Of a stretch of DNA of 64,000 bases, positions 3,841 to 62,663 are shown piece after piece. Location: assembly GCA_017529865.1 (NCBI GenBank), contig JAFXNA010000018.1:105138-169137 (forward strand). The letters run 5' to 3'. Origin of the DNA: Bacteroidaceae bacterium. Its GTDB lineage: Bacteria; Bacteroidota; Bacteroidia; Bacteroidales; Bacteroidaceae. Each line of letters opens with the position of its first letter. The stretch's first letter is position 1. Below the pieces are notes generated by a model. It did not search any database, was not told where the DNA came from, and was given only the letters and a program-made list of their open reading frames with translations. The translations under genes were made by a program, and so were the position numbers.

Positions 3841-4473
3841 CCGACCATTATTCATTCATCTAATTAGCTGTATTACAATGAGTTACAATATCAGTAAATC
3901 GAATTCCTCTATGAGGCAAACGCTCGGAAAGGGATAGAATGTATAAAAATCCTGCTCTTTTAGGCCTCAAAAGATATGCAAACCCCCTTGTTTTGATGTT
4001 TTACCCTATATTTTGCGAACATATCAGTTGTTCTGAATTTCAGTACTTTGAACTCATTTTGAAGGTATTATGTGGCATAATGGTTAATTTGGTTGCAGAA
4101 ATAGGGGTAATAAGGGCCAAAATAACCCAGTCTTCTTTGATAATAACGAGGACTTATTCGAGGATAAGGATGGATTATTGAGTAAGATATTAATATTAAT
4201 TTAACATAATTTGCCATTAACAATTAACACTTCATTATTGCTCCTAACAAGAGGGTATTAAAGGAAAAAATTGTTACCCTTAAGGGAAAATTTTGTTACT
4301 ATTAAAGGTAACAAATGTTAGTCCTAAGGATTGAAAAATAAAGTATATAAAGGAAGAGAATATGAAGCTTGAAGTTAGTTATCAAATTGATAAGGAGAGA
4401 GTAAAAGTTAAAAAAATGAGGGTACTTTATCAATTATTTGATAAAGCATAATTTGTATTTAATAATTATTTCG

Positions 4474-4524: not shown

Positions 4525-7371
4525 ATGGAATACAACTTCAGAGAGATTGAACAGAAGTGGCAGCAGCGATGGGTGGAGCAGAAGACCTATCAGGTTGCAG
4601 AAGACAGTAGTAAGAAGAAATTTTATGTGCTGAACATGTTTCCTTACCCCAGTGGTGCAGGACTGCATGTGGGGCACCCATTAGGATATATTGCAAGTGA
4701 CATCTATGCACGCTACAAGCGTCTGCAGGGATTCAATGTGCTGAACCCTATGGGCTATGATGCCTATGGACTGCCTGCAGAGCAGTATGCCATACAGACT
4801 GGTCAGCACCCAGAAGTGACTACTTTCCAGAATATCAACCGTTATCGTGAGCAGCTGGATAAAATCGGCTTCTGCTTTGACTGGAATCGTGAGGTACGTA
4901 CTTGTGATCCTGGCTACTACCACTGGACTCAATGGGCTTTCCAGAAGATGTTCAACAGCTTCTATTGCTACAAATGCCAGTCGGCTCAACCTATAGACTC
5001 ACTCATCAAGCATTTTGAGGAGAAGGGCACAGAGGGTCTGGATGTGGCTCAGAGTGAGGAACTGACCTTCACTGCTGAGGAATGGAAGGCAATGGATGAG
5101 AAGCAGAAGAGTGACACACTGATGAACTACAGGATTGCATTCCTGGCAGAGACTAATGTGAACTGGTGTCCAGGACTTGGGACAGTTCTTGCCAATGATG
5201 AGGTGGTTGATGGTGTGAGTGTGAGAGGTGGATTCCCTGTAGAGCAGAAGAAGATGCGTCAGTGGTGTCTGCGTGTGTCAGCCTATGCTCAGCGTCTGCT
5301 GGATGGTCTTGACACCATAGACTGGAGTGAAAGTATCAAGGAAACCCAGAGAAACTGGATTGGCAGAAGTGAGGGTGCTGAAGTGAAGATAAAGGTGGCT
5401 GACAGTGATGTGGAGTTCACTATCTTCACCACCCGTGCTGATACCATGTTTGGTGTGACCTTCTTTGTACTGGCTCCTGAGAGTGAGCTGGTGGACTTGG
5501 TGACTACTGCTGATCAGCGTAAGGCTGTGGATGACTATATCAAGTATGTGAAGGGCAGAACTGAACGTGAACGTATGATTGACCATACTGTGACTGGTGT
5601 GTTCTCAGGTGCATACGGCATCAACCCTATCACAGGTGACAAATGTCCTATCTATGTGGCTGAATATGTGTTGGCAGGCTATGGTACAGGTGCCATCATG
5701 GCAGTACCTGCTCATGACAGTCGTGACTATGCCTTTGCCAAGCATTTCAATCTGCCTATTATCCCTCTGATTGAGGGGGCAGACATCAGCGAGGAGAGCT
5801 ATGATGCCAAGGAAGGTATTGTGATGAACTCACCAAAAGTAGAGCCCCTCTCTAACTCCCCCGAGGGGGAGGACTCTTTGGTGCTCAATGGGCTTACAGT
5901 AAAAGAGGCGATTGCAAAGACAAAGGAATATATTACCAGAACAGGTTTAGGACGTGTGAAGGTGAACTACCGCTTGCGTGATGCTATCTTCAGCCGTCAG
6001 AGATATTGGGGTGAACCATTCCCTGTGTATTACAAGAACGGTATTCCTCAGATGATTCCAGAGGAGTGTCTGCCTATTCAGTTGCCTGAAGTTGATAAGT
6101 TCCTGCCAACAGAGACGGGTGAACCTCCATTGGGCAATGCCACCTGCTGGGCTTGGGACGAAGCAAATAAGCAGATTGTGGAGAATAGCAAGATAGACAA
6201 CCAGACAGTCTTCCCAATCGAACTCTATACGATGCCAGGATTTGCAGGCTCATCAGCCTACTACCTGCGCTATATGGACCCTCACAACAATGAGGCTCTG
6301 CTTTCGAAGCAAGCTGCTGAATACTGGCAGAATGTGGACCTCTATGTAGGTGGAAGCGAACATGCTACTGGTCACCTGATCTATAGCCGATTCTGGAACA
6401 AGTTCCTGTATGACCTGGGCATCAGTGTGAAGGAAGAGCCATTCCAGAAGCTGATCAACCAAGGTATGATTCAAGGCAGGAGCAACTTTGTGTATCGCAT
6501 CAAGGACACCAACACCTTCGTGAGCCTGGACAAGAAAGAGGGCTATGAGGTGACTCCAATCCATGTGGATGTGAACATCGTGTCAGCTGATGTGCTGGAT
6601 GTAGAGGCATTCAAGGCATGGCGCCCTGAGTATCATGATGCAGAATTCATCCTGAATGATGAAGGTAAATACATCTGTGGATGGGCAGTGGAGAAGATGT
6701 CAAAGTCAATGTTCAATGTGGTGAACCCAGACATGATTGTAGAGAAGTTCGGTGCTGACACCCTGCGTCTGTATGAGATGTTCCTTGGTCCAGTGGAGCA
6801 GAGCAAGCCTTGGGACACCAATGGCATTGATGGCTGCCACCGTTTCCTGAAGAAATTCTGGAACTACATGACTGCCGACACCAAGGAGTGTGACCCTACA
6901 GCTCAGGAACTGAAAGCACTGCACACCCTCATCAAGAAGGTGACAGGCGACATTGAGCAGTTCTCATACAACACCAGCATTGCTGCCTTCATGATCTGTC
7001 TGAACGAACTGACCAAGATAAAGAGTGAGAGCAAGGCAGTGAAAGAGGCATTGGCTGTATTGATAGCACCATTCTGTCCGCACTTGGCAGAAGAGCTGTG
7101 GGAGATGCTGGGACATGCCACAACTGTGTGTGATGCCCCATGGCCAGCCTTCAATGAAGAATATCTGAAAGAGGACAACATGAAGATGATGGTGGCCTTC
7201 AATGGTAAGGCACGCTTCCCACTGGAATTCCCTGTGGGCACAGAGCAGCAGACCATCATCGACACTGCACTGCAGGAACCACAGTCGCAGAAGTGGCTGG
7301 AAGGATTCAATGTGGTGAAGGTGATTGTGGTGCCTGGCAAGATGATTAATATAGTACTGAAACCAGCATAA
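4525..7371 (+). CDS. leuS: leucine--tRNA ligase
   Basis: [16 protein letters not shown], a HVGH (HIGH-type) motif, [16 protein letters not shown], and KMSKS. The start is taken at the ATG at 4525 because the promoter box lies inside the longer ORF. Confidence 0.95.
5843..5871 (+). repeat. GC-rich hairpin element (two C-boxes and one G-box) embedded in frame in leuS
   Basis: agcccctctctaactcccccgagggggag is identical over 29 nt to intergenic 50959-50987. ctccccc/gggggag forms the stem. Confidence 0.85.
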
Positions 7372-15139: not shown

Positions 15140-15160
15140 CTACTCTTCACTCTTCACTTT
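15140..15160 (-). repeat. period-7 stop array (TGA, TGA, TAG in minus-strand sense) at the trmH-type gene end, upstream of mutS
   Basis: The minus strand reads gtgaagagtgaagagtag. Stop triplets sit at plus-strand 15154-56, 15147-49 and 15140-42. Confidence 0.7.
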
Positions 15161-18240: not shown

Positions 18241-18299
18241 GATCTTATTTACTATTTAACAACTTACCTCATTTTTTGCATTTTTGCATTTTATAATTT

Positions 18300-18926
18300 T
18301 TACATTTTTCTTAAAATACTAATCCCGTCTCTCACAGATACAATCACTTTCTCCACCCTCGTGTCCTTTGCTACGAAGTCGTTGAAGGCCATGATGCCCT
18401 TTGTCTGTTCATCGTGCTCTGCTGGCGGTTCCAACACATGTCCGTCCCACAGTGTGTTATCGGCAAGGATAAAGCCACCGGGATTCATGTGTTGCATCAC
18501 CATCTCGTAGTAGTTCACATATTCCCTTTTGTTGCCATCGATGAATGCCATATCGAACTTGATACCCAATTTTGGTACAATCTCCATAGCATCTCCGATA
18601 TAGAACTTCACGCGGTCGGCCCAAGGGGAGTTTTCTATCCAAGGACGTGTAAAATCCTCCAATTCATCGAAGATTTCAATCGTATGAACCATTCCACCAT
18701 CCTGCAATCCTTCAGCCATACACAGTGCCGAGTAGCTGCTATAGGTGCCGATCTCCAGAATGTTTTGAGGACGTATCATCTCCACAAACATCTTCAACAG
18801 CCTACCTTGTACATGTCCACTTGCCATCCTGCCATACAGCAATTGTGTTTGAGTGGCTCTATACAACCGATGAAGATATTCTCCCTCCTCATCGATATGC
18901 TGCGCTATGTACTCTTCAATCTCCAT
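18300..18926 (-). CDS. class I SAM-dependent O-methyltransferase (caffeoyl-CoA OMT-like)
   Basis: ILEIGTYSSYSALCMAEGL..FDMAFIDGNKREY..GGFILADNTLW. The ATG at 18926 overlaps the aroQ stop (TAATG). Confidence 0.85.
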   Translation of the reverse strand: MEIEEYIAQHIDEEGEYLHRLYRATQTQLLYGRMASGHVQGRLLKMFVEMIRPQNILEIGTYSSYSALCMAEGLQDGGMVHTIEIFDELEDFTRPWIENSPWADRVKFYIGDAMEIVPKLGIKFDMAFIDGNKREYVNYYEMVMQHMNPGGFILADNTLWDGHVLEPPAEHDEQTKGIMAFNDFVAKDTRVEKVIVSVRDGISILRKM

Positions 18927-19417: not shown

Positions 19418-19521
19418 CACATTATTTAGCATTTCACAATTTACCATTTACTATTTTTCTGCAATTCCTTTGTTTTTCGCCTTCAATCCGTGGGGTTTTG
19501 CTGTTTGTGCCTGACAAGTGG

Positions 19522-19891: not shown

Positions 19892-21274
19892 TTAATAATC
19901 GCTTGCGCCACACTGACTTAGGCGTAAGACAAATTCGTCCTTATCGACCATCTGTTGTTCACCCGTGGTCATGTTTTTAATAGTGACCTTTCCTTCCTGC
20001 ATCTCCGTCTCGCCGATGATGGCAACGAAAGGAATCTCCTTAGCATTGGCATAACTCATCTGCTTCTTCATCTTGGTGGAATCAGGATAGATTTCTGTAC
20101 GAATGCCAGCCTTACGGAGGTCGGCAATGATGGGCAGACTATATTGTGCTTCCTTTTCACCGAAGTTGACGAAGAGCACTTGAGTAGCATTAACTGCCTC
20201 ACGGGGATAGAGATTGAGTTGGTTGAGTACATCAAAAATGCGGTCAGCACCAAACGAAATGCCTACACCTGAAAGACCTGGCATACCAAAGATTCCTGTG
20301 AGGTTGTCGTAACGTCCGCCACCTGTGATGCTGCCAATCTGCACATCGAGTGCCTTCACTTCGAAGATGGCTCCTGTGTAATAATTCAGTCCACGAGCCA
20401 AAGTAAGGTCGAATTCAAGTGAAGAGTGAAGCGTGGAGAGTGAAGCGAGCGTATTCAAGATAAACTCTATCTCTTCGATTCCTTTGAGTCCGATTTCACT
20501 ATCTTTGAGCACTTCACGCATTGTCTGCAACTTCTCTGCGTTCGTCCCTTGAAGATTGATAATCGGCTGTAATTTCTCGATGGAATGGGCAGGAATTCCA
20601 GCTTCAGCCAATTCTGCGTTAACGTTGTCGATACCGATTTTGTCCAATTTATCGATGGCCACCGTAATGTCGACTATCTTATCTGCCTCACCTATTATTT
20701 CTGCGATGCCAGACAGAATCTTACGATTGTTGATTTTGATACATACCCTTACACCAAATTTTGTAAACACGGTATCGATAATCTGCATGAGTTCAACTTC
20801 GTTTAGCAAGGAATTTGACCCCACGACATCGGCATCACACTGGTAAAACTCTCTATAACGGCCTTTCTGAGGACGGTCAGCACGCCATACGGGCTGTATC
20901 TGATAACGCTTGAATGGCAAAGCCAATTCCTCACGATGCATCACCACATAGCGTGCAAAAGGAACGGTGAGGTCATAGCGCAGACCTTTCTCGCAGAATT
21001 TACTTGCCAGTTTTGCAGCATTGCGACTCAAGAGTTCTCCATCAGTCAAACCCTTGAAATAATCACCCGAATTCTGTATCTTAAACAGCAGTTTATCACC
21101 TTCCTCGCCGTACTTACCCATCAACGTAGATAGGTTTTCCATTGCAGGCGTTTCGATTTGCTGGAATCCATAGAGGGCATATACCTCTTTAATGGTATTG
21201 AATATATAGTTGCGTTTCGCCATCTCAACAGGAGAGAAGTCGCGAGTGCCTTTTGGAATACTTACGTTAGCCAT
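19892..21274 (-). CDS. hisS: histidine--tRNA ligase
   Basis: [54 protein letters not shown]. Confidence 0.96.
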
Positions 21275-21275
21275 T

Positions 21276-21317
21276 GTTTATAGTTTACGGTTTACAGTTT
21301 ACGGTTTACAGTTTTTT
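21276..21317 (-). repeat. period-7 array (GTTTACR x6 on plus; TAA x5 in minus-strand sense) filling the spacer upstream of hisS
   Basis: The plus strand has tta at 21278, 21285, 21292, 21299 and 21306. Confidence 0.85.
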
Positions 21318-22612: not shown

Positions 22613-22672
22613 ATTTGTTTTGTTTTTTGTTTATCTATTAAGCTACTAAGCTATTAAGCCAATTTTCGAGCG

Positions 22673-22680
22673 CAAAGTTA
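22673..22680 (-). promoter_or_regulatory. -7 box TAacTTTG for the nucleoside permease gene
   Basis: The plus strand reads caaagtta, about 60 nt upstream of the ATG at 22612. The leader carries GCTTAATAGCTTAGTAGCTTAATAG. Confidence 0.45.
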
Positions 22681-22686
22681 CAAAAA

Positions 22687-22718
22687 TAATTTATAATTCA
22701 TAATTCATAATTCATAAT
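22687..22718. repeat. heptamer array (TCATAAT)n in a divergent promoter region
   Basis: TAA at 22687, 22694, 22701, 22708 and 22715 on the plus strand. The complementary units attatga give TGA at 7-nt spacing on the minus strand. Confidence 0.85.
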
Positions 22719-27403: not shown

Positions 27404-28417
27404 ATGGCAAAAAATAATATCATAGTAAAATTACAACGTTGGATGGACAGCAAAGCCGGTCAGATGTTTCTGAACTATGCTTATAGCTGGGGTGCATCTA
27501 TCGTAATCCTCGGAGCGCTGTTTAAAATCACACACATCGACGGTGCCGACTTTATGCTCTTCCTTGGTATGGGAACTGAGGTTATCGTGTTCTTCCTCGC
27601 AGGATTTGAACGTCCTTACGACGTAGACAACAAGAAAGAAGGAACTGCCAACACAGAATTGGCAGGTGGAGAACCTGCTACTATCGGTGGTGGCGGCGGA
27701 ACCTTTATCGTAGGAGGCGGTATACCTGGTGCTACTGGTGGTAGTGGAGAATCCGTCATTGTAGAAGGTGGAGAAAGTGGAGAAGCTGCTGCAATAAGTG
27801 GTAGCGGAGTATCAGGTGGCGGAAGCGGAGTGCCTGGTGGCGGAACCATCATCATTGGTGGAGGTGGTGGCGGAAGCGGAGTGCCTGGTGGCGGAACCAT
27901 CATCATTGGTGGAGGTGGTGGCGGAAGCGGAGTGCCTGGTGGCGGAAGCGGTCAGCCAGTGGGAGCACCTGTTGTTGCACCAATTGCTGCAAGTGGAGAG
28001 AATGCACAACCAACCGAAAATGCTCAATCCATCGATCCTGCCCAACTTGCAGGAGCTATTGCTGCTTCGCCAATCGTGGCTTCTCCTCAATTTACTGGTA
28101 TGTGTCCAGAGATGCAAGAGGCAACCCAGACGTATGTTGATCAGTTGAATGAATTGACAGATATCTTGAAGAAGGTTGCTGAGCAATCTGCACGCCTTAC
28201 CCGTGACTCTGAAGAGATGGAGAATATGAACCGCACGCTTACTGGTATCAATCGCTTCTACGAGATGCAGTTGCGTAGCGTGAGTGCCCAGAGTGCTTCG
28301 GTTGATGAAGTCAATGAGCAGACCAAACGTCTGGCAAGCCAGCTTGAGGAACTCAATCAGGTATATGCCCGTATGGTTGAAGCCTTGAAAGTGAATATGA
28401 CGGTCAAGGGAGATTAA
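27404..28417 (+). CDS. porL: T9SS motor protein PorL/GldL, with a Gly-rich repetitive linker
   Basis: Two N-terminal TM helices (GASIVILGALFKITH, LGMGTEVIVFFLAGFE) and a C-terminal coiled-coil region. Sits between porK and porM. Confidence 0.88.
   Translation: MAKNNIIVKLQRWMDSKAGQMFLNYAYSWGASIVILGALFKITHIDGADFMLFLGMGTEVIVFFLAGFERPYDVDNKKEGTANTELAGGEPATIGGGGGTFIVGGGIPGATGGSGESVIVEGGESGEAAAISGSGVSGGGSGVPGGGTIIIGGGGGGSGVPGGGTIIIGGGGGGSGVPGGGSGQPVGAPVVAPIAASGENAQPTENAQSIDPAQLAGAIAASPIVASPQFTGMCPEMQEATQTYVDQLNELTDILKKVAEQSARLTRDSEEMENMNRTLTGINRFYEMQLRSVSAQSASVDEVNEQTKRLASQLEELNQVYARMVEALKVNMTVKGD
27815..27946 (+). repeat. perfect 51-bp tandem repeat, 2 full units plus 30 nt, in frame inside porL
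   Basis: The unit ggtggcggaagcggagtgcctggtggcggaaccatcatcattggtggaggt encodes GGGSGVPGGGTIIIGGG. Units are at 27815-27865 and 27866-27916, with a partial unit at 27917-27946. Confidence 0.9.
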
Positions 28418-30056: not shown

Positions 30057-30106
30057 AGTTAGAGAATCGAAGAGTTGAAATATTGAAGTATTAAAACAAT
30101 CATCAT

Positions 30107-33614: not shown

Positions 33615-35270
33615 ATGGCTAATTTACCAGACTTTAAGTATGCCCCGATGTTTCAGGTGGGCAAGGACACAACCGAATACCGTCTGCTGACGAAAGAAGG
33701 GGTGACAGTGAGTGAATTCGAAGGTCACGAAATTGTGAAGGTATCCAAGGAGGCACTGACGCTGCTGGCTCAGCAGGCTTTCCACGACGTGGAGTTCATG
33801 TTGCGTCGCGAACACAACGAGCAAGTAGCAAAAGTACTACGTGACCCCGAAGCTTCGGAGAACGACAAGTATGTGGCCCTGCAGTTCCTACGCAATGCCG
33901 AGGTGGCGTGCAAGGGTGTGCTCCCGTTCTGCCAGGACACTGGTACGGCCATCATTCATGGCGAGAAAGGCCAGCAGGTATGGACGGGATTTGAGGACGA
34001 AGAGGCTCTGAGCCTCGGTGTGTTCAACACCTATACGCAGGACAACCTTCGCTACTCACAGAACGCTCCGCTCGACATGTACAACGAGGTGAATACGAAG
34101 TGTAACCTGCCAGCTCAGATTGATATCGAGGCCGTGGAGGGTGACGAATACCGCTTCGTAATGGTAGCCAAAGGTGGAGGTTCGGCTAACAAGACCTACT
34201 TCTATCCGATGACGAAAGCCACGATTCAGAACGAGGGAACATTGCTGCCGTTCCTCGTTGAGGAAATGAAGCACCTTGGTACTGCAGCCTGTCCGCCATA
34301 CCATATCGCTTTCGTAATCGGTGGTACATCGGCCGAGAAGAACCTCCTGACCGTGAAGCTCGCCAGCATCAAATACTACGACAACCTGCCAACCACAGGC
34401 GATGAGACAGGACGTGCATTCCGCGACATCGATCTGGAGCAGAAACTGCTGAAGGAAGCCTTCAAGATTGGGCTAGGTGCACAATTCGGCGGCAAATATC
34501 TGGCTCACGACATCCGCGTTATCCGTCTTCCTCGTCACGGAGCTAGCTGCCCTATCGGAATGGGTGTCAGCTGTAGTGCAGACCGCAATATCAAGGCTAA
34601 AATCAACAAGGACGGTATCTGGTTGGAGAAGATGGACGACAACCCAACAGAACTGATTCCAGAAGAATACCGCAAGCCAGGTGAAGGAACGAAAGGTATT
34701 GAAATCGACCTCGACAAAGGCATCGATGCCGTTCGCGCTGAACTGACCAAGTACCCTGTGTCCACTCGCGTGAACCTCAAGGGAACCATCATCGTAGCTC
34801 GCGACATTGCTCACGCCAAACTGAAAGCACGCCTGGATGCAGGCGAAGGTATGCCTCAGTACTTTAAGGACTATCCTGTGCTCTATGCAGGACCTGCCAA
34901 GACACCAGAAGGCTATCCTTGCGGCTCGATGGGACCGACCACAGCCAACCGTATGGACCCATACGTAGACGAGTTCCAGGCAAACGGAGCCAGTCTGGTG
35001 ATGATTGCGAAGGGCAACCGCACTCAGCAAGTAACTGACGCCTGCAAGAAACACGGCGGATTCTACCTCGGAACCATCGGAGGTGTGGCAGCCGTTCTCT
35101 CACAAAGCAGCATCAAGAGCATCGAATGTGTGGAATACCCAGAACTCGGTATGGAAGCCATCTGGAAGATTCAGGTAGAAGACTTCCCTGCCTTCATTCT
35201 CGTGGACGATAAGGGCAACGACTTTTTCAAGCAGTTGAAACCCTGCGAAGGATGCACCATATTAGAGTGA
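33615..35270 (+). CDS. fumB: class I (Fe-S) fumarate hydratase, fused alpha/beta type
   Basis: [20 protein letters not shown], and a C-terminal GPTTA.RMD..V. The start is taken at MANLPDF because the promoter box lies inside the longer ORF. Confidence 0.88.
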
Positions 35271-35294
35271 AGAGTGGAGAGTGAAGAGATAGAG
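35265..35294 (+). repeat. GTGAAGAG-type purine-rich repeat with stops in three frames
   Basis: gagTGAagagtggagagTGAagagaTAGag; the first TGA is the fumB stop. Confidence 0.75.
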
Positions 35295-35298
35295 CAGC

Positions 35299-35688
35299 AT
35301 GGAGAGTTTAGCATTTGAAAATTTAAAGGCTTATAATTATGCTCGAGCTTTGGTTCGGAGTGTATATAAACTTGTAGCGAAACTTCCATATTCTGAACGT
35401 AACGCTCTTTGCGATCAGATTCATAGGGCTGTCATTTCTGTCCCGTCAAATATCGCGGAAGGGATGAGCCGTAAAACAAAGAATGCCAAGCTACAATATA
35501 TCGAGTATTCTTATGGTTCATTGATGGAAGTTTTATGTCAATTACAATTGGCCAACGACTTAAAGTATATATCAGACCAAGAGTTAGCAGAAGAAAGGAT
35601 TCATATTGAAGAAACTGCCAAAATAATATCGGGATTATATTCATTTATTAACAAAACAAACAAAGGTGATCGTGAATCAGCATGCTGA
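35299..35688 (+). CDS. four-helix-bundle protein (23S rRNA intervening-sequence protein / Avd-like family)
   Basis: 129 aa: AYNYA..VYKL...LP..ER..L.DQI.RA..SV.SNIAEG. Confidence 0.8.
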   Translation: MESLAFENLKAYNYARALVRSVYKLVAKLPYSERNALCDQIHRAVISVPSNIAEGMSRKTKNAKLQYIEYSYGSLMEVLCQLQLANDLKYISDQELAEERIHIEETAKIISGLYSFINKTNKGDRESAC

Positions 35689-35695
35689 GTACAAT

Positions 35696-35720
35696 CTCTT
35701 CACGCTTCACGCTTCACGCT
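35696..35720. repeat. inverted-orientation copy of the GTGAAG repeat (cttcacg x3)
   Basis: ctcttcacgcttcacgcttcacgct; its reverse complement is agcgtgaagcgtgaagcgtgaagag. Confidence 0.75.
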
Positions 35721-35732
35721 ATACTATTATTT

Positions 35733-36293
35733 ATGGAAGACGTAAAAGTGTACCTCAACGCTGCCGAAGAAGATATGGAGATGGCAGCCATGAATCTTGA
35801 GGAGAAATTAAGCCGCATCCGTGCCGGACGTGCCAACGTACATATCCTCGACGGAATCCGCGTAGACTCTTACGGGTCAATGATGCCGCTGAACAACGTG
35901 GCATCTCTCACTACTCCTGATGCACGTTCCATCATCATCAAACCTTGGGACAAGAACATGCTGAAGGTCATCGAAAAAGCTATCATCGACTCATCCGTAG
36001 GTATCATGCCTGAGAACAATGGTGAACAGTTGAGACTGGGTATCCCTGTACTGACAGAGGAACGCCGTAAAGAACTCACCAAACAGTGCTCTAAAGAGGC
36101 TGAATCGGCAAAGGTAAGTGTAAGAAACGCTCGTCGCAATGCCATCGAGAAGCTGAAGAAAAGCGTGAAAGAAGGTGTGCCCGAGGACGTAGAGAAAGAT
36201 GCCGAAGAGCAGTGCCAGAAACTTCACGATAAATACATCAAGAAGATTGACGGAATGCTCGACGAGAAGAACAAGGAAATCATGACCGTTTAA
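35733..36293 (+). CDS. frr: ribosome recycling factor
   Basis: LSRIRAGRANVHILDGIRVDSYG and LTEERRKEL.K. Start at MEDVKVYL. Confidence 0.93.
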   Translation: MEDVKVYLNAAEEDMEMAAMNLEEKLSRIRAGRANVHILDGIRVDSYGSMMPLNNVASLTTPDARSIIIKPWDKNMLKVIEKAIIDSSVGIMPENNGEQLRLGIPVLTEERRKELTKQCSKEAESAKVSVRNARRNAIEKLKKSVKEGVPEDVEKDAEEQCQKLHDKYIKKIDGMLDEKNKEIMTV

Positions 36294-36320
36294 TTGACAA
36301 TTGATTATTGACAATTGAAA
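36291..36320 (+). repeat. period-7 stop array taattga/caattga/ttattga/caattga
   Basis: TAA at 36291 (the frr stop), then TGA at 36295, 36302, 36309 and 36316. Confidence 0.8.
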
Positions 36321-47833: not shown

Positions 47834-47987
47834 CCAATTCTTACCTCTCATTTCCCGATGAAATGGGGCAAAATCAAGGATTTCAACTTGTTCCGCAAAT
47901 GACTATCAACTTATTCAGTAAAACGGTTGTCAACCGCATCAGGAAATAAGCAAAAAACTGTCAACCAAAATTAGGAAAAGACTATTT

Positions 47988-48330
47988 GGTCTCACGGTCT
48001 CAACGGTCTCAACGGTCCGGCGTGAGGTTCCAGGTCGCTGGGGGAACTTGATTCTTAGGCCTTGATAATTTTCCTTCTTAGGCTTGAAAAATTATTTTTT
48101 AAGGCATACAAGAATATTTTCTTAGGCTCGAAAGTTTTCGACTGAAACTTGATGCCTGAAGCGGGGGACTTGGAATTTTTTTTGACATGACCAAATTTTC
48201 AAAAATAAATTTTCGGGAAAAAACGGGGAAACTGGGCTTTTGGAGAAACGTAATATCACGGGCAGCGAAACGTAACCTCACACCTCATGAAACGTAATCT
48301 CTCGGGGCGAGAAGTTACGTTTTCTGAATC
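47988..48330. repeat. cluster of short phased direct-repeat arrays in a gene-free region
   Basis: (cggtctcaa) x3 at 47988-48018. TTnTTAGGC boxes at 48052, 48075, 48099 and 48119 (spacings of 23, 24 and 20 nt). GAAACGTAA at 48245, 48267 and 48289 (exactly 22-nt period), plus an inverted copy that forms a hairpin at 48289-48324. Confidence 0.8.
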
Positions 48331-48612
48331 GGCTGTTTTTGTAAAGTGAAGAGAGCAATGAAATTAGGGGGAGAGTCAACCTTATTCAGGAAAAGACAAT
48401 CTGAGTTAACTTATCTCAGTACAAGAAATTCTCGCTGGAATTACAACGGGAAAGTACGAAATCAGAAGTCAGGAAAGATGTGTGGAACAGGCATGTGCTT
48501 TTTTTGCTTCCTTTGCAACCTTGTAATATGGATTTATGTGTGCTGTCAATGGATTCGTGGTTCAAACGTTTAATAGTTCGGTGGTTTAATGGCCGAATTA
48601 CAAAATTTTTTG

Positions 48613-48620
48613 TAACTTTG
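48613..48620 (+). promoter_or_regulatory. argS -7 box TAacTTTG
   Basis: tttttgTAacTTTGcagcc, 49 nt upstream of the ATG at 48669. The same tgtaactttgc core occurs in the promoter at 22673. Confidence 0.5.
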
Positions 48621-48668
48621 CAGCCGGATTAGCTTAGTAGGTTAATTGCTTAGTAGCTTAGTAGAATT

Positions 48669-50474
48669 ATGATGTCAATTGAAAATAGAATAATCAAGGC
48701 TGTAAAGGATGGCATTCAATCGCTTTACGGCGTAGATGTGGACGAGAAACAGATTCAGGTGCAGCAGACCAGAAGTGAGTTTGAAGGCCAACTGACTGTG
48801 GTGGTGTTCCCCTTCCTTCGTGCTTCGAAGAAAGGCCCCGAGCAGACTGGTCAGGAGCTGGGACAATATCTGAAGGAGAACCTGAGCGAGGTGGTTGCCA
48901 ACTTTAATGTGGTGAAGGGATTCCTGAACTTGGTGATCTCGAGCCAGAGTTGGTTGGAGTTGCTGCAAGCTATCAATGCAGACGAGCAGTTCGGTTTCGT
49001 AAGTGCCACCGAGGACAGTCCGCTGGTGATGATAGAATACAGTTCGCCGAATACCAATAAGCCGCTCCACTTGGGTCATGTGCGCAACAACCTGCTGGGG
49101 TCTTCCTTGGCTCGTATCGTTGCGGCAAATGGCAACAAGGTGGTGAAGACCAATATCGTGAACGACCGCGGTATTCACATCTGTAAGTCGATGTTGGCTT
49201 GGTTGAAGTACGGTAACGGTGAGACTCCGGAATCTTCTGGCAAGAAGGGTGACCACCTGATAGGTGACTATTATGTGGCCTTCGACCAGCACTACCGTCA
49301 GGAGGTGAAGGAGCTCGTGGCGCAAGGTATGGATGAGGAACAAGCCAAGCAGGAGGCTCCACTCATCAAGGAAGCACACGAGATGTTGGTGAAGTGGGAG
49401 CAGAACGACCCTGAGGTGCGTGCGTTGTGGAAAAAGATGAACGAGTGGGTATATGCCGGCTTCGACGAGACCTACAAGATGATGGGTGTGTCGTTCGATA
49501 AGATATACTATGAATCTGACACCTATCTGGAAGGTAAGGAGAAGGTGATGGAAGGACTGGAAAAGGGTATCTTCTATCGCAGAGAGGACGGTTCGGTATG
49601 GGCCGACCTCACCAAAGACGGACTGGACGAGAAGTTGCTGCTGAGAAGCGACGGAACCAGTGTGTATATGACTCAGGATATCGGAACGGCGAAGTTGCGT
49701 TTCCAGGACTTCCCTATCGATAAGATGATTTATGTGGTGGGCAATGAGCAAAACTATCACTTCCAAGTGTTGTCGATTCTGCTTGACAAACTGGGATTCA
49801 AGTGGGGCAAGGACCTTGTTCACTTCTCCTACGGTATGGTGGAATTGCCAAGCGGTAAGATGAAGAGCCGTGAGGGTACCGTTGTGGATGCCGACGATCT
49901 GATTGCCAAGATGATTGAAGATGCCTATCAGGTATCGAAAGAGATGGGCAAGAACGAAGACATCCCAGAAGAGGAGGCTCGTGAGATAGCAAGAAAAGTG
50001 GGACTGGGTGCGTTGAAATACTTCATCCTGAAGGTTGATGCCCGTAAGAACATGCTGTTCAACCCAGCCGAGAGTATCGACTTCAATGGTAATACAGGCC
50101 CGTTCATCCAGTATACGTATGCCCGTATATCATCCATTTTGCGTAAGGCAAAGGAGGCAGGCATTGATCTGAGTGTTCTGAATACTCTGAGTAATCAGAT
50201 TACGCTGAGTGAGAAGGAAATCACGCTCATCCAGAAACTCAACAGCTTTGAAGCAGCAGTACGTCAGGCTGGTCAGGATTACAGTCCATCAGGCATTGCA
50301 AACTACTGTTATGAGCTGACCAAGGAATATAACCAGTTCTATCACGACTTCAGCATCCTGAGAGAGGAGGACGAGCAAAAGAAGCAGTTCCGACTGATGC
50401 TCTCGAAGTGTGTTGCGAAGGTGTTGAACGAAGGTATGGGACTGTTGGGTATTGAGATGCCTGAGAGGATGTGA
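48669..50474 (+). CDS. argS: arginine--tRNA ligase
   Basis: SSPNTNKPLHLGHVRN (HIGH-type) and a C-terminal anticodon-binding domain ending ..GIEMPERM. Confidence 0.96.
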   Translation: MMSIENRIIKAVKDGIQSLYGVDVDEKQIQVQQTRSEFEGQLTVVVFPFLRASKKGPEQTGQELGQYLKENLSEVVANFNVVKGFLNLVISSQSWLELLQAINADEQFGFVSATEDSPLVMIEYSSPNTNKPLHLGHVRNNLLGSSLARIVAANGNKVVKTNIVNDRGIHICKSMLAWLKYGNGETPESSGKKGDHLIGDYYVAFDQHYRQEVKELVAQGMDEEQAKQEAPLIKEAHEMLVKWEQNDPEVRALWKKMNEWVYAGFDETYKMMGVSFDKIYYESDTYLEGKEKVMEGLEKGIFYRREDGSVWADLTKDGLDEKLLLRSDGTSVYMTQDIGTAKLRFQDFPIDKMIYVVGNEQNYHFQVLSILLDKLGFKWGKDLVHFSYGMVELPSGKMKSREGTVVDADDLIAKMIEDAYQVSKEMGKNEDIPEEEAREIARKVGLGALKYFILKVDARKNMLFNPAESIDFNGNTGPFIQYTYARISSILRKAKEAGIDLSVLNTLSNQITLSEKEITLIQKLNSFEAAVRQAGQDYSPSGIANYCYELTKEYNQFYHDFSILREEDEQKKQFRLMLSKCVAKVLNEGMGLLGIEMPERM

Positions 50475-50476
50475 TG

Positions 50477-50509
50477 TAATGCATAATTCATAATGCATAA
50501 TTCATAATT
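50477..50509 (+). repeat. period-7 TAA array (taatgca/taattca x2.5) after argS
   Basis: TAA at 50477, 50484, 50491, 50498 and 50505. Confidence 0.85.
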
Positions 50510-50958: not shown

Positions 50959-50987
50959 AGCCCCTCTCTAACTCCCCCGAGGGGGAG
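50959..50987 (+). repeat. GC-rich hairpin element, intergenic copy
   Basis: 29/29 identity with 5843-5871. Confidence 0.85.
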
Positions 50988-50998
50988 AACTGGGAACC

Positions 50999-51032
50999 TT
51001 AAATGGTAAATGGTTAAATGGTCAATAAATAG
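50999..51032 (+). repeat. TAAATGG-type repeat upstream of the ABC transporter gene
   Basis: ttaaatggtaaatggttaaatggtcaataaatag; its stop triplets fall in all three frames. Confidence 0.7.
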
Positions 51033-52920: not shown

Positions 52921-54186
52921 ATGGGATATTTATTTACATCAGAATCAGTGAGCGAAGGACATCCTGACAAGGTAGCCGACCAGATATCGGATGCCGTGTT
53001 GGATCATTTCCTTGCTTTCGATGAGGATTCAAAGGTAGCATGTGAAACACTTGTGACAACCGGATTGGTTGTCGTGGCAGGCGAAGTGAACTCGAAAGCA
53101 TACATCGACCTGCAGGAAGTTGCTCGTAAGGTGATTGGCAAGATTGGCTATACGAAGGCAGAGTATAAGTTCGAGGCAGAGAGTTGTGGACTTCTCTCGG
53201 CGATTCATGAGCAGAGTGCCGATATCAATCAGGGTGTGGTTCGCGAGAAACTCGAAGACCAAGGAGCAGGCGATCAAGGTATCATGTTCGGATATGCTAC
53301 GAATGAAACCGCCAATTATATGCCACTTGCGCTCGATCTGAGTCATCATCTGTTAAGAACGCTTGCTGCAATTCGGCATGAAGGCCGTCAGATGACCTAT
53401 CTGCGTCCCGACAGCAAGAGTCAGGTAACGATTGAATATGGTGATGACGGAAAGCCAAAAAGAATCGATTCCATCGTGATTTCCACACAGCATGACCCAT
53501 TCCTTGACGACGATAATGCGATGTTGGAACAAATCAAGAAGGATGTGAAAACCATCCTGATTCCTCGTGTCATCAGCGAGACCAAGGAAGAATATATCAA
53601 GGCGTTGTTCAACGATGACATCAAGTACTATGTGAACCCAACAGGCAAGTTCGTCATTGGAGGCCCACATGGTGACACTGGTCTGACAGGCCGCAAGATA
53701 ATCGTTGATACCTACGGAGGCAAAGGTGCGCACGGTGGAGGGGCTTTCTCGGGTAAAGATCCAAGTAAGGTAGACCGCTCAGCTGCCTATGCTGCACGTC
53801 ATATAGCCAAGAACATGGTTGCTGCAGGGGTTGCAGACGAAATGTTAGTACAGTTGAGCTATGCTATCGGTGTAGCAGAACCTGTCAGCATCTATGTAAA
53901 CACCTATGGTCACTCAAACGTGGCTATGACCGATGGAGAGATAGCCAAGAAAATCCACGAGATGTTCGACCTGCGTCCATACGCCATCGAGCGCGACCTG
54001 AAATTGCGTAAGCCAATTTATACAGAAACAGCTGCATACGGTCACATGGGACGTGAGCCACAGGTCGTCGAGAAACATTTCTTCAGTCCTTACCAATCAG
54101 GAGGAAAGAAAGATATGACTGTCGAACTCTTCACTTGGGAGAAACTCGATGAGGTAGACCGTATTAAGAAAGAGTTCAGACTTTAA
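52921..54186 (+). CDS. metK: S-adenosylmethionine synthase
   Basis: [40 protein letters not shown]. Confidence 0.97.
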
Positions 54187-54243
54187 AAATAGACATTAGA
54201 CATTAGACTTTAGGCTTTAGAGAATAAACACTAGACTTTAGAG
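54187..54243 (+). repeat. eight stop triplets at exact 7-nt spacing after metK
   Basis: TAG/TAA at 54190, 54197, 54204, 54211, 54218, 54225, 54232 and 54239. Confidence 0.9.
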
Positions 54244-54249
54244 TGGGAG

Positions 54250-54924
54250 ATGGAAGAAGGGATTGCAATTGCCAGCCGTAGCTATTTGATGCGCAATGAT
54301 GACGTGATGACCATTGGAGCCATCTTGTCGTTCGTACTGTTCACTTTTGTGCTCTATCGTAGCCGTATGGTGTTTATGTACAAAATCACCACCTTCTTCT
54401 CCTCACGTCAGATTTATTCATCGAATGAAGTCAGTGTCAGTAATCGCGAGATTGTCGACATCCTTTTGCTGATTGTGCTGGGTTGCCTTTCTATTGGCAT
54501 CATCCTCTTTTCTGATATCTACGCTCCCTCCACTTCAAGATATGGAATCATTGCATTGCTCACTCTTGGATGTGCGCTATTAATTGTTTTTAAAGGGATA
54601 TTATATGCGATTGTCAACTGGACATTCTTCAGTGTCAGTCAAGGAAATGCATGGCTTTCCGCCTTTCTGTTTTCTGTAGCAATTGTATCAGCACTTGCGT
54701 TCCCATTATCACTACTGCGTGTCTTTTGTGTAGATATGTTTGTTAACATAACACATTGTCTAATCGGACTTATCATTTTGCAGAAAATCATATTGCTCTG
54801 TAAGCTCTATGCCCACTTTCGGCCTAAAAAATATGGCGGATTGCTGTTTTTTTTGTACTTTTGCAGCGTCGAAATTATGCCAACGCTTATTGCGTGGCAA
54901 TTGATGAGTAGAACAGCCGAGTAA
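54250..54924 (+). CDS. multi-pass membrane protein (DUF4271-like)
   Basis: 224 aa with about 6 hydrophobic helices. Sits upstream of hemD, as in other Bacteroidetes. Confidence 0.5.
   Translation: MEEGIAIASRSYLMRNDDVMTIGAILSFVLFTFVLYRSRMVFMYKITTFFSSRQIYSSNEVSVSNREIVDILLLIVLGCLSIGIILFSDIYAPSTSRYGIIALLTLGCALLIVFKGILYAIVNWTFFSVSQGNAWLSAFLFSVAIVSALAFPLSLLRVFCVDMFVNITHCLIGLIILQKIILLCKLYAHFRPKKYGGLLFFLYFCSVEIMPTLIAWQLMSRTAE
54856..54863 (+). promoter_or_regulatory. -7 box TActTTTG inside the 3' end of the preceding gene
   Basis: 86 nt upstream of the ATG at 54949. Confidence 0.35.
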
Positions 54925-60375: not shown

Positions 60376-60386
60376 ATATCTTAAAA

Positions 60387-60405
60387 CTTTTCACTTTTCA
60401 CTCTA
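60387..60405 (-). repeat. GTGAAAAG repeat with TAG/TGA/TGA upstream of the DUF3098-like gene
   Basis: The minus strand reads TAGagTGAaaagTGAaaag; the TAG is the ftsX stop. Confidence 0.7.
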
Positions 60406-61275: not shown

Positions 61276-61284
61276 CTCTCTAAA

Positions 61285-61304
61285 TTTTCACTTTTCACTC
61301 TTCA
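61285..61304 (-). repeat. period-7 TGA x3 array (minus-strand sense) from the miaB stop towards the ftsX start
   Basis: The plus strand has tca at 61288-90, 61295-97 and 61302-04. Confidence 0.8.
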
Positions 61305-62663
61305 CTTCTCTCCCCTTGAGGGGGAGTTGGAGGGGGCTTCCACCCCTTTCAATGTAGCTGAACTTGCCTCCGTAATCTTCACCTTCACAAAGTCGCCGAT
61401 ATGATGATTGTTACGGTCGAACACCACTACCTTATACTGCTGTGTGCGTCCGAACAACTGATCTTTCGAACGTTTGCTCACACCTTCCACCAGCACCTCG
61501 AACGTCTTGCCGATATCGCGCTGATAGCTCTCAGCCGACAGCTGGTTCTGTAGCGCAATCAGTTCGTTCAGTCGGCGAATCTTTGTCTCTTCAGGCACAT
61601 CGTCAGGCAGATGCTTCGATGCGTAAGTGCCTGGACGCTCCGAATACTTGAACATGAAGGCACTGTCATACTGGCATTCCCTCATCAGCGAAAGCGACAA
61701 CTGATGATCCTCTTCCGTCTCAGAGTGATAGCCGCAGAAGATGTCAGTCGTCAGTCCACAATCGGGGATGATGCGACGAATGGCAGCCACACGTTCCAGA
61801 TACCACTCGCGCGTATATTTTCTGTTCATCAGCTGCAGGATGCGGTTGCTTCCGCTCTGTACAGGCAGATGGATGTGTCGGCAGATATTCGGATAGTCGG
61901 CAATCACCTGCAACGTCTCGTCGCTCATATCCTTCGGATGCGAAGTTGTGAATCGGATGCGCATATCAGGCACCGCCTCAGCCACTCTTCTGAGCAACTC
62001 CGGGAAGTTAATCTCCGTTCCCTCTCCCTCGGTGGCCTTATACGAGTTCACATTCTGTCCCAGCAGCGTCACCTCTTTGAAACCCTTTGCCTGCAAGTCC
62101 TTCACTTCGTTCAGGATGCTGCTGATGTCCCTGCTTCGCTCACGTCCTCTGGTGTAAGGCACGATGCAATAATGGCAGAAGTTGTTGCAGCCACGCATGA
62201 TGCTCACAAACCCGGAAATGCGATTACCACAGATACGTTCGGGTATGATGTCCTTATAAGTTTCTGTTGTCGACAGCTCAACATTGATGGCTTTCTCGCC
62301 AGCTTCGACAGCAGCAAATAATTCGGGCAACTGCAAATACGAATCAGGACCGGCAACCAAGTCCACATGGTGATGCTCAATCAGGTCCTCCTTCACACGT
62401 TCGGCCATACAGCCAACCACACCGATGATTTTGAGATTTTTGGTTTTTGAGTTCTTGAGTCGTAAGTGATTCAATTCTTCCAATCTGTGGAATATCTTCT
62501 GCTCCGCATTGTCACGCACCGAGCACGTATTTAGCAACACAGCATCTGCACCCTCTATCGAGTCCTGGCTCTCATAGTCAGCCATTTTCATCACCGAGGC
62601 AATCACCTCACTGTCTGCCACATTCATCTGACAGCCGTAGGTTTCTATATAGAGTTTCTTCAT
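61302..62663 (-). CDS. miaB: tRNA (N6-isopentenyl adenosine(37)-C2)-methylthiotransferase
   Basis: IETYGCQMN, radical-SAM motif GCNNFCHYCIVP, and a TRAM domain. The C-terminal tail APSNSPSRGEK is encoded by the GC hairpin element. Confidence 0.95.
   Translation of the reverse strand: MKKLYIETYGCQMNVADSEVIASVMKMADYESQDSIEGADAVLLNTCSVRDNAEQKIFHRLEELNHLRLKNSKTKNLKIIGVVGCMAERVKEDLIEHHHVDLVAGPDSYLQLPELFAAVEAGEKAINVELSTTETYKDIIPERICGNRISGFVSIMRGCNNFCHYCIVPYTRGRERSRDISSILNEVKDLQAKGFKEVTLLGQNVNSYKATEGEGTEINFPELLRRVAEAVPDMRIRFTTSHPKDMSDETLQVIADYPNICRHIHLPVQSGSNRILQLMNRKYTREWYLERVAAIRRIIPDCGLTTDIFCGYHSETEEDHQLSLSLMRECQYDSAFMFKYSERPGTYASKHLPDDVPEETKIRRLNELIALQNQLSAESYQRDIGKTFEVLVEGVSKRSKDQLFGRTQQYKVVVFDRNNHHIGDFVKVKITEASSATLKGVEAPSNSPSRGEK
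61308..61337 (-). repeat. GC-rich hairpin element forming the last codons of miaB
   Basis: The plus strand reads ctctccccttgagggggagttggagggggc and shares agggggagttggaggggg with 62901-62918. Confidence 0.8.

Follow-up and report, generated by a model that had tools for sequence, protein, structure and literature searches.

An array of heptamers between metK and a DUF4271 gene

The 64,000-nt stretch of DNA analysed here, which we call the window, is part of contig JAFXNA010000018.1 of a Bacteroidaceae bacterium. Between metK (52921-54186) and a gene of the DUF4271 family (54250-54924) it has a spacer of 63 nt, nearly all of which is made up of eight 7-nt units that begin 3 nt past the metK stop codon and end 7 nt short of the DUF4271 ATG. 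Tandem Repeats Finder (TRF) reports this array, which is the focal array of what follows, with the following bounds.

54190-54242, plus strand: focal array, unit TAGACWT, period 7, 7.6 copies, 73% matches

A preliminary description of this DNA, drawn up from its letters alone, had drawn attention to plus-strand TAG or TAA triplets at exact 7-nt steps. Rereading of the sequence finds all eight (54190, 54197, 54204, 54211, 54218, 54225, 54232 and 54239), in the units that were listed there: TAGACAT, TAGACAT, TAGACTT, TAGGCTT, TAGAGAA, TAAACAC, TAGACTT and TAGAGTG. The lag-7 identity of the spacer is 0.64, a value reached by none of 20,000 dinucleotide shuffles of the 63-nt sequence. Eight stops share one 7-phase, compared with a maximum of six in 20,000 such shuffles.

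Copy number among strains and related species

In a scan of GTDB genomes with MetK the closest relative had 74% identity, and close relatives were found instead by look-ups of exact proteins. The MetK, HisRS and RRF of the host have exact matches on metagenome-assembled genomes (MAGs) labelled 'Bacteroidaceae bacterium' at NCBI and on ENA, JGI and Logan contigs from bovine and rumen metagenomes. The DNA that flanks the metK spacer is 98.1-98.9% identical between the window and the strain contigs, and the focal array has alleles of 8 units in the window, 12 in L082 and 5 in L084, L091, L092 and L093. The corresponding spacers measure 63 nt, 91 nt (a 28-nt duplication of four units) and 42 or 41 nt, the shortest having lost three units (-21/22 nt), with or without one extra T. 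Contig L085 has the same number of units as the window and three substitutions. Over 12.7 kb, with three to six strains compared, spacer indels were found in the focal array only. In a further pair of contigs, L136 differs from L116 by one extra CAATTCT unit (+7 nt).

Five array-bearing spacers are covered by diverged strains; both of those with at least 4.7 units differ and all three with 3.7 units or fewer are identical. One of the two that differ is altered in unit number. The other is the argS-rnhA spacer, which holds TAATKCA x5 in the window and in L082, a strain 98.4% identical, has been wholly replaced by a GC-rich hairpin followed by a GTAAACG array. An assembly artefact is ruled out, since ENA, JGI, NCBI and Logan assemblies contain the arrays independently of one another.

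Related species were found through homologues of the DUF4271 protein (89, 83, 75, 71, 59 and 54% identity), and gene order is conserved in them. Their metK-DUF4271 junctions measure 22 nt (L101), 3 nt (L103), -1 nt, an overlap (L105), 10 nt (L107) and 22 nt (L109), with the genes also overlapping in L108, and in none of the six genomes does this junction have an array or three-frame stop coverage. Arrays are found at other junctions: GTGAAGA x8 between rnhA and the ABC exporter gene in L105, three different arrays in the 111-nt ftsX-DUF3098 spacer of L101, and GTTGATA x4 at the argS-rnhA junction of L103. The argS-rnhA junction of related species has 1.5-3 units or another unit, and the TAATKCA array there seems to have lengthened, with about 1.5 units in L101, 3 in L105 and 5 in the window. 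Alignment of orthologous spacers had been proposed as a check that the stop triplet is kept while the filler varies. In the sequences compared it is the period that recurs across species; at a given junction no conservation is seen of the array or of its stop triplet. The arrays, then, grow and shrink by whole units, turn over fast and are not conserved at orthologous junctions. The preliminary description had mentioned as a fallback that they might be merely slippage-prone simple repeats, and the whole-unit changes among strains, together with this lack of conservation, support it.

Period 7 in the non-coding DNA of the window and the clade

A comparison of the 37 spacers of the window with dinucleotide shuffles, which had also been proposed, revealed an enrichment of lag-7 identity (z = 6.6); lag 8 gave z = 3.1 and lag 21 gave z = 4.6. 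The window has 13 period-7 arrays in its 64 kb. This density (2.0 per 10 kb) is 5.7 times the 0.36 per 10 kb of unrelated metK loci; the comparison set consisted of 1.32 Mb around metK in 80 other genomes, searched with the same TRF settings. A clade set was obtained by a metagenome scan for a hairpin element that is described below. The scan returned 120 rumen contigs, reduced to 103 contigs (750 kb) by removal of near-duplicates. In this set TRF found 234 arrays of period 7, with 93 canonical heptamers represented among them, and 57 arrays of period 8, 6 of period 5, 21 of period 10 and 20 of period 11. The lag-7 excess in short non-coding DNA was +0.075 in the window, +0.040 in the rumen contigs, +0.001 in other Bacteroidota and -0.002 in other phyla. 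Coding DNA showed 3-periodicity only, the lag-7 excess being restricted to non-coding DNA. In short spacers the density of period-7 arrays was 1.83 per kb where the genes are co-directional, 1.82 per kb where they are convergent and 0.33 per kb where they are divergent. The arrays occupy DNA that tolerates units whose length is not a multiple of 3, namely spacers of all kinds, gene ends, and protein linkers if the array is stop-free and of a net length that is a multiple of 3.

Together with the strain comparisons, these results lead us to regard the arrays as probably microsatellites with heptanucleotide and, in some cases, octanucleotide units. They would be a mutational feature of a whole lineage, a clade of uncultured rumen Bacteroidaceae, in which slippage is filtered by the reading frame.

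Heptamer arrays were also met by chance in unrelated genomes. The contigs fetched in this way are L071 (14238-14314), L031 (1853-1887), L022 and L007. The finds include AGTGAAA x11 at a contig end of Geomobilimonas luticola, TAATTCA x5 a short way 5' of metK in a MAG that carries the label Bacillota, and several arrays each or together from Tidjanibacter and Flavobacterium terrigena genomes.

Arrays of the window and their distance from start codons

TRF finds 13-14 period-7 arrays and about six period-8 arrays in the window, in spacers or at their edges. Those that enter the argument, besides the focal array, are given here in order of position.

15142-15158, minus strand: GTGAAGA array, 2.4 copies, within the final codons of trmH (SpoU), whose stop is the array's TAG at 15140-15142
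18273-18309, minus strand: period-8 array TGCAAAAA, 4.6 copies, across the stop codon of an O-methyltransferase gene; no stop triplet on either strand
19424-19456, minus strand: GGTAAAT array, 4.6 copies, in a 208-nt spacer upstream of aroQ
20418-20445, minus strand: CTTCACN array, 4 copies, in frame inside hisS, encoding SLSTLHSSL
21276-21314, minus strand: TGTAAAC/CGTAAAC array, 5.6 copies, in the spacer from an MFS permease gene to hisS, ending 1 nt before the hisS ATG
22618-22718, no strand assigned: three arrays, TTTTGTT x2.1, CTATTAAG x3.1 (period 8) and ATAATTC x4.7, in a divergent promoter-type spacer between the MFS permease gene and a 7TMR-HD gene
30075-30096, plus strand: period-8 array TTGAAATA, 2.8 copies, in the gldM-gldN spacer
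35264-35288, plus strand: AGAGTGA (GTGAAGA-type) array, 3.6 copies, holding the fumarase stop TGA at 35268; one unit mutated to TGG
35698-35720, plus strand: CTTCACG array, 3.3 perfect copies, in the spacer from a bAvd-like gene to frr; no sense-strand stop
36292-36318, plus strand: AATTGAC array, 3.9 copies, covering the frr stop codon and the rsgA TTG start
48630-48664, plus strand: period-8 array TAGCTTAG/TAGGTTAA, 4.4 copies, ending 7 nt before the argS ATG
50477-50509, plus strand: TAATGCA/TAATTCA array, 4.7 copies, in the argS-rnhA spacer
51000-51026, plus strand: TAAATGG array, 3.7 copies with one indel, in the spacer from rnhA to the ABC exporter gene, directly 3' of the hairpin element at 50959-50987
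60386-60402, minus strand: GTGAAAA array, 2.4 copies, right after the ftsX stop codon and upstream of a DUF3098 gene; no strain variation
61285-61307, minus strand: GTGAAAA/GTGAAGA array, 3.3 copies, including the miaB stop codon and leading to ftsX; the same in six strains

Most of the additional stop series of the preliminary description are where it placed them: TAA x5 at 50477-50507, TGA x4 at 36295-36318 (the last TGA overlapping the TTG start), and on the minus strand TAA x5 at 21278-21308 and TGA x3 at 61288-61304, the first of which is the miaB stop. Two series are present in altered form. At 15140-15156 the triplets exist, but trmH itself terminates on the TAG, and both TGAs are out-of-frame triplets within its final codons and so not intergenic. 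At 35268-35292 the stops are present but the second unit reads TGG, so that they are spaced by 14 and 8 nt.

The genes adjacent to arrays in the window are housekeeping genes such as metK, argS, hisS, frr, mutS and miaB, and four genes (fumarase, miaB, trmH and frr) terminate on a stop codon carried by an array. For most arrays the distance from the array end to the start codon is 1-12 nt, so that the array would form part of the leader of the downstream gene. Start contexts in the window have A at -3, -6 and -11 to -16 and no Shine-Dalgarno motif, as expected of the organism that does not use Shine-Dalgarno pairing which the preliminary description had supposed. They match the Bacteroidota type, in which leaders lack a Shine-Dalgarno sequence and A at -3, -6, -12 and -13 promotes initiation (Baez et al. 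2019, PMC6847099).

One explanation for these positions, close to the proposal made by MacGregor for the TAACTGA repeats discussed below, is that the arrays are tunable leaders: A-rich, weakly structured sequences in the -1 to -60 region whose copy number tunes the distance from stop to start, coupling or initiation. Their closeness to start codons, an A-rich sense strand like that of Bacteroidota initiation regions, the weak predicted folding of the array regions (-2 to -12 kcal/mol) and the polymorphism in copy number are all consistent with this idea. However, folding is not weaker than that of dinucleotide shuffles (z from -2.3 to +0.9), spacers that lack arrays have the same composition, and convergent spacers, which have no downstream start, are equally dense in arrays. 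In addition, unit families occur in both orientations (in the clade TAATTCA is found twice in the sense and eight times in the antisense orientation), and the housekeeping genes concerned have no obvious need for switching. A change in copy number could alter the spacing from stop to start; we consider it rather improbable that the arrays exist for this purpose. A leader that is unstructured by design is ruled out by folding z-scores that centre near zero. The array regions have no Rfam match at gathering thresholds and no tRNAs, and since they fold like shuffles a structured RNA is likewise ruled out.

One pair of arrays in the list surrounds a gene. Between fumarase and frr (35264-35720) lies a 129-aa four-helix-bundle gene (Pfam 23S_rRNA_IVP / bAvd), with inverted GTGAAG-type arrays as its flanks, AGAGTGA x3.6 upstream and CTTCACG x3.3 downstream; this gene with its flanking arrays could be an inserted cassette.

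Base composition accounts for the stop triplets

According to the interpretation offered in the preliminary description, the arrays could be frame-independent ribosome-stop or insulator cassettes in a host without Shine-Dalgarno pairing, with the stop triplet as their conserved core. That stops fall in all three frames is correct and follows arithmetically for any stop-containing heptamer that is repeated at least three times, because 7 mod 3 = 1. Several observations in the window accord with selection. Of the 14 window arrays in co-directional context, 12 carry a stop on the sense strand and 4 on the antisense strand (Fisher P = 0.006). Three-frame stops are present on the sense strand of 13 of the 29 co-directional spacers of 15-150 nt and on the antisense strand of 7. 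Finally, free variation in copy number without retention of three-frame coverage had been named as a finding that would speak against such cassettes; whole-unit changes do occur among strains that are 98-99% identical, but every within-species allele of the focal array still covers the three frames.

These asymmetries may be compared with what composition alone would yield. The sense strand of the 29 co-directional spacers contains A, T, G and C in proportions of.40,.27,.19 and.14. Stop triplets in these spacers number 126 in the sense and 75 in the antisense direction, and mononucleotide shuffles of the sense strand give 117±7 (P = 0.11). Anagrams of the stop triplets are as frequent as the stops themselves (TAA 67, ATA 60, AAT 68; TAG 29, TGA 30, AGT 29), and the expectation from mononucleotide shuffles for three-frame coverage is 10.6±2.1 spacers, against the 13 observed. 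When the letters of each unit are permuted, 10.6 of the 14 window arrays are expected to have a sense stop (P = 0.28), and for the window and its relatives together the numbers are 25 of 32 observed and 22.2 expected (P = 0.13). In the 750-kb clade set, with array orientation taken from crude calling of open reading frames (ORFs), a sense stop is present in 62 of 94 arrays (55.8 expected) and an antisense stop in 52 of 94 (42.7 expected). A small excess on both strands is what ascertainment would produce, because stop-free arrays are absorbed into ORF calls. Composition-matched tests are therefore negative for a sense-specific stop design, and the claimed bias toward stops on the sense strand is accounted for by base composition. 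Co-directional arrays would share the A-rich, C-poor sense composition of Bacteroidota leaders, and TAA, TAG or TGA is usual in their units because these are made of T, A and G.

A second part of the claim was that the stop is kept while the filler drifts. This is true of the focal array, in which 1 of 11 mismatches falls at the TAG/TAA positions and that one still leaves a stop. For the arrays pooled, a test with the register fixed on the stop gave 7 versus 33 mismatches (P = 6e-4), a result biased by the choice of register and by terminal half-units. In a register-rotation test on the pooled period-7 arrays the stop windows had 23 mismatches compared with 29.2±4.0 (P = 0.07, or P = 0.19 without the focal array), so that the apparent signal for conservation of the stop triplet is reduced to a non-significant deficit. 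Decayed stops are found, as in the TGG at 35275 and the GGGAAGA units of L105, and some arrays have no sense stop at all, for example those at 35698-35720 and 18273-18309 and one that fuses carA to carB (see below). In the six related genomes the metK-DUF4271 junction works with 0-22 nt and no array. Since in the clade sense and antisense stops are about equally common, and convergent spacers are as rich in arrays as co-directional ones, a selected insulator or ribosome-stop cassette is very unlikely. The three-frame stops look like an arithmetic by-product of the heptamer period and an A-rich, C-poor sense strand, not like a designed ribosome stop.

Arrays inside genes and their effect on annotation

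About one fifth (20%) of the clade arrays lie within long ORFs; these are stop-free and have a net length that is a multiple of 3. In the window the hisS array encodes SLSTLHSSL where a 96%-identical HisRS has GLS-LNNEV; 7 of 12 residues differ in this patch between the two proteins. Contig L199 (450-3395) has a carbamoyl-phosphate synthase with several translated arrays, and in it carA and carB form a single 981-codon ORF because a stop-free array replaces the spacer between them. In the clade, the CarA linker has array-like peptides at one position, for example SKLYTLNSKL, and the inserts in CarA and CarB include the EELRVKSEE type. Judging from the peptides themselves, the CarA linkers would be arrays whose units differ coherently. 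A filter by the reading frame predicts this, since stop-containing orientations could then survive only outside genes or at gene ends.

Arrays in spacers can be mistaken for coding sequence. Several databases over-call frr by 17 codons (203 aa), whereas the NCBI frr is 186 aa and starts at 35733 (window 35682-35733); the over-extension arises because the CTTCACG array upstream has no in-frame stop. HisRS database entries have similar N-terminal extensions through the upstream spacer.

A limited vocabulary of units and a dispersed hairpin

GTGAAGA-type units make up 6 of 14 window arrays (P about 0.003), and TAGACTT, TAATTCA, CGTAAAC and TAGCTTAG recur at unrelated loci and in unrelated contigs. 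The TAGCTTAG/TAGGTTAA family also flanks, in many rumen contigs, a dispersed GC-rich hairpin element of 27-29 nt, AG-CCCCTCTCYAACTCCCCCGAGGGGGAG, which is present in the window at 5843-5871 and 50959-50987, in L082 at 570-585, and in L110-L229. The two window copies are identical; one is in frame inside leuS and the other is in the spacer between rnhA and the ABC exporter gene. The metagenome scan found at least 120 copies, every one in rumen-type contigs. In 40 of 108 distinct contexts the hairpin stands deep inside a long ORF, in several frames, and an inverted partner frequently follows it at a distance of 10-25 nt. The hairpin is similar to the Rickettsia palindromic elements, which likewise insert into protein genes, and no published description of it was found for Bacteroidota.

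These observations raise the possibility that the arrays, or many of them, were spread pre-formed by small mobile palindromic elements or by short-patch ectopic gene conversion, with slippage modulating copy number later. In addition to the shared units, the arrangement of a hairpin followed by CAGATT-n and a CGTAAAC array is common to two unrelated loci (L156 and L185/L082), the hairpin is often flanked by arrays, and in L082 this cassette has taken the place of the resident array. Some 17 nt are shared by non-orthologous spacers, miaB-ftsX of the window (61276-61301, …GTGAAAATTTAGAGAGATG) and rnhA-ABC exporter of L101 (3102-3125, …GTGAAGAATTTAGAGAGAGATG). The localised difference in the hisS patch would also fit, as would six inverted pairs of arrays that form hairpins, some of them inside carA and carB. 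On the other hand, a single array out of about 14 in the window adjoins the hairpin. Neighbouring arrays have unrelated units in 82 of 93 pairs. The argS arrays of L101, L105 and the window look like stepwise growth in place, and neither a transposase, a target duplication nor an element boundary has been identified. The vocabulary count in the 750-kb set may in part reflect orthologous loci of related species. On balance we think spreading of this kind unlikely as the general explanation, though it is the alternative to be taken most seriously. With inverted pairs amounting to 6 of 93, the arrays are ruled out as terminal inverted repeats of miniature inverted-repeat transposable elements, and the pairs around the bAvd-like gene and in carA and carB are curiosities.

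The recurrence of a few unit families could also be read as a sign of repeated binding sites for a sequence-specific DNA- or RNA-binding regulator, in a regulon-like network; similar proposals exist for the TAACTGA repeats (PMC4679880) and for the heptanucleotide elements of Geobacter (PMC2700814). We consider this extremely improbable: the units are many (the 93 heptamers noted above), their orientation is not fixed, their presence at a given junction is not conserved, and the downstream genes have no common functional theme.

Some of these data, and others given earlier, weigh against the microsatellite interpretation that we prefer. Pure local slippage does not predict a restricted vocabulary of units, and it does not predict the replacement of the L082 argS-rnhA spacer by the hairpin and a different array. 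Arrays in essential genes are hard to explain, since single 7-nt steps would cause frameshifts. The first four positions of the focal-array unit (1-4, TAGA) clearly vary less than positions 5-7, and the pooled stop windows of the window and its relatives show a mismatch deficit, which is weak and non-significant; the orientation counts in the clade carry the uncertainty of the ORF calling. The limited vocabulary and the arrays that travel with the dispersed hairpin are the points that simple local slippage leaves unexplained, and they leave a modest probability for active spreading. In its strongest form, a lineage-specific process (template switching, short-patch ectopic conversion or hitch-hiking on the palindromic element) would actively write or spread a small vocabulary of heptamers (GTGAAGA, TAATTCA, TAGACTT, CGTAAAC) into spacers, gene ends and the linkers of essential proteins. 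We regard this as doubtful. If it were true, spacers would be interchangeable cassettes and not locally evolved sequence, and arrays could secondarily set gene ends and leader lengths.

Relation to known repeats

The preliminary description knew of no account of such arrays. In fact an excess of heptanucleotides, stops in the forward orientation, and sites just upstream of starts that lack a Shine-Dalgarno sequence have all been published (PMC4679880, PMC4692102). As summarised in these two papers, Mrázek, Guo and Shah (2007, PNAS) found that in most genomes heptanucleotides are the most frequent class of long simple sequence repeats with units of 5-11 nt; slippage, in connection with the polymerase footprint, was proposed as a hypothesis for their origin. 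According to the same summaries, those repeats and the window arrays have in common tandem 7-nt units that are over-represented relative to chance, a sporadic lineage-specific distribution, slippage as the proposed origin, and a mainly non-coding location, because 7 is not a multiple of 3. As there reported, the survey did not highlight Bacteroidota. The window and the clade differ from what is summarised of it in having 2-3 arrays per 10 kb (TRF score of at least 30), many coexisting unit families, and arrays in protein linkers as well. The window arrays have the characteristics of heptanucleotide variable-number tandem repeats, that is, head-to-tail units, a frequency above chance, polymorphism by whole units and a mainly non-coding location.

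The closest parallel in position is provided by the TAACTGA direct repeats of marine Beggiatoaceae, some Cyanobacteria and five Bacteroidetes (MacGregor 2015, PMC4679880). These heptamers are present in 2-6 or more copies, mostly intergenic and 'forward', a few nt from starts without Shine-Dalgarno sequences. Forward TAACTGA supplies stop codons and limits overlap at ORF ends, the reverse orientation is found inside ORFs, and other heptamer repeats occur in Gramella and Elizabethkingia spacers (PMC4679880). The likeness lies in heptamer direct repeats that are mostly intergenic and close to start codons. A stop-containing orientation directly upstream of starts is seen in most window arrays; in the clade orientation is mixed and convergent spacers are as populated. 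Unlike the TAACTGA system, the present one has many unit families and no single dominant heptamer. No tandem TAACTGA dimers were found in the window or in about 1 Mb of relatives and rumen contigs. For the clade arrays, copy-number data from strains and a comparison of orthologous junctions can be set beside the TAACTGA work.

The STRR heptamers of heterocystous cyanobacteria (Calothrix, Nostoc), as cited in PMC4692102, are similar in being dispersed non-coding tandem heptanucleotides of limited vocabulary, with function unknown in both cases; they belong to another phylum, and the window units are AT-rich. STRR tandems of CCCCAGT, TTGGTCA and CAACAGT are not present here. The GGGAATC / GGGGAYT repeats of Xanthomonas and Nostoc (Rehm 2015, PMC4692102) and the Geobacter metallireducens elements (PMC2700814) are also intergenic heptamers, found between the same gene pairs in sister species and varying extensively in length and sequence. 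The former are G-rich and quadruplex-capable and the latter GC-rich, whereas the window units are A/T-rich and predicted to be weakly structured. None of the known unit families (TAACTGA, STRR1-3, GGGAATC, GGACCGG) is present.

Other tandem or stop-rich systems are less similar. Engineered three-frame stop cassettes and natural fail-safe stops, whether tandem or out of frame, likewise put stops in all three sense frames downstream of a gene, but here there is no evidence of selection for three-frame stops. A CRISPR array, which needs repeats of at least 20 nt with unique spacers, is ruled out by contiguous units of 7-8 nt. Contingency-locus repeats, which underlie phase variation in Haemophilus, Neisseria and others, mostly have units of 1-5 nt and are found in ORFs or between the -35 and -10 sites of surface or virulence genes. 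They share with the window arrays a unit number that changes by slippage and alters expression-relevant spacing; the window arrays differ from them in having 7-8-nt units between housekeeping cistrons. We found no paper on such arrays in Prevotella-like rumen Bacteroidaceae.

Other features of the window

The window also contains the type IX secretion genes PorP, GldL, GldM, GldN and PorZ. In gldL, at 27815-27947, there is a perfect 51-nt tandem repeat (17 aa, rich in Gly, Ser and Pro) in 2.6 copies. An otherwise identical ENA contig has one repeat copy fewer (320 aa versus 337 aa), so that this motility/secretion gene is polymorphic in length. The first 4400 nt of the window have a GC content of 31-33%, the figure elsewhere being about 45%. 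They contain ORF6N-domain genes and two repeats, one of 33 nt (74-137) and one of 22 nt (4257-4320); this segment, beside leuS, is probably a foreign or mobile island. Upstream of argS an 838-nt stretch (47834-48671) is gene-free, contains several repeats with periods of 9, 22 and 8, and matches no Rfam family. At 48173-48398 it has 78% similarity to DNA found at another place in strains L092 and L095.

Origin and significance of the arrays

The arrays are a known kind of repeat, here in a new lineage. Under the microsatellite interpretation they would arise by strand slippage in replication. In E. coli, mismatch repair deals with loops of up to about 4 nt only, and 7-nt loops probably escape MutS-dependent repair. 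Selection would then act only afterwards, as a filter.

No new translational insulator is revealed by these results. Their practical consequence is for annotation, as the arrays mislead gene callers, leaving frr too long, hisS extended and carA fused to carB in database entries. The length polymorphism among strains can break assemblies or serve as a source of typing markers for uncultured rumen Bacteroidaceae. The unexplained preference of bacteria for 7-nt units is displayed in this clade cleanly and at very high density, and the many independent births and deaths of arrays at the same junctions make the clade a good system in which to test the polymerase-footprint and slippage idea.

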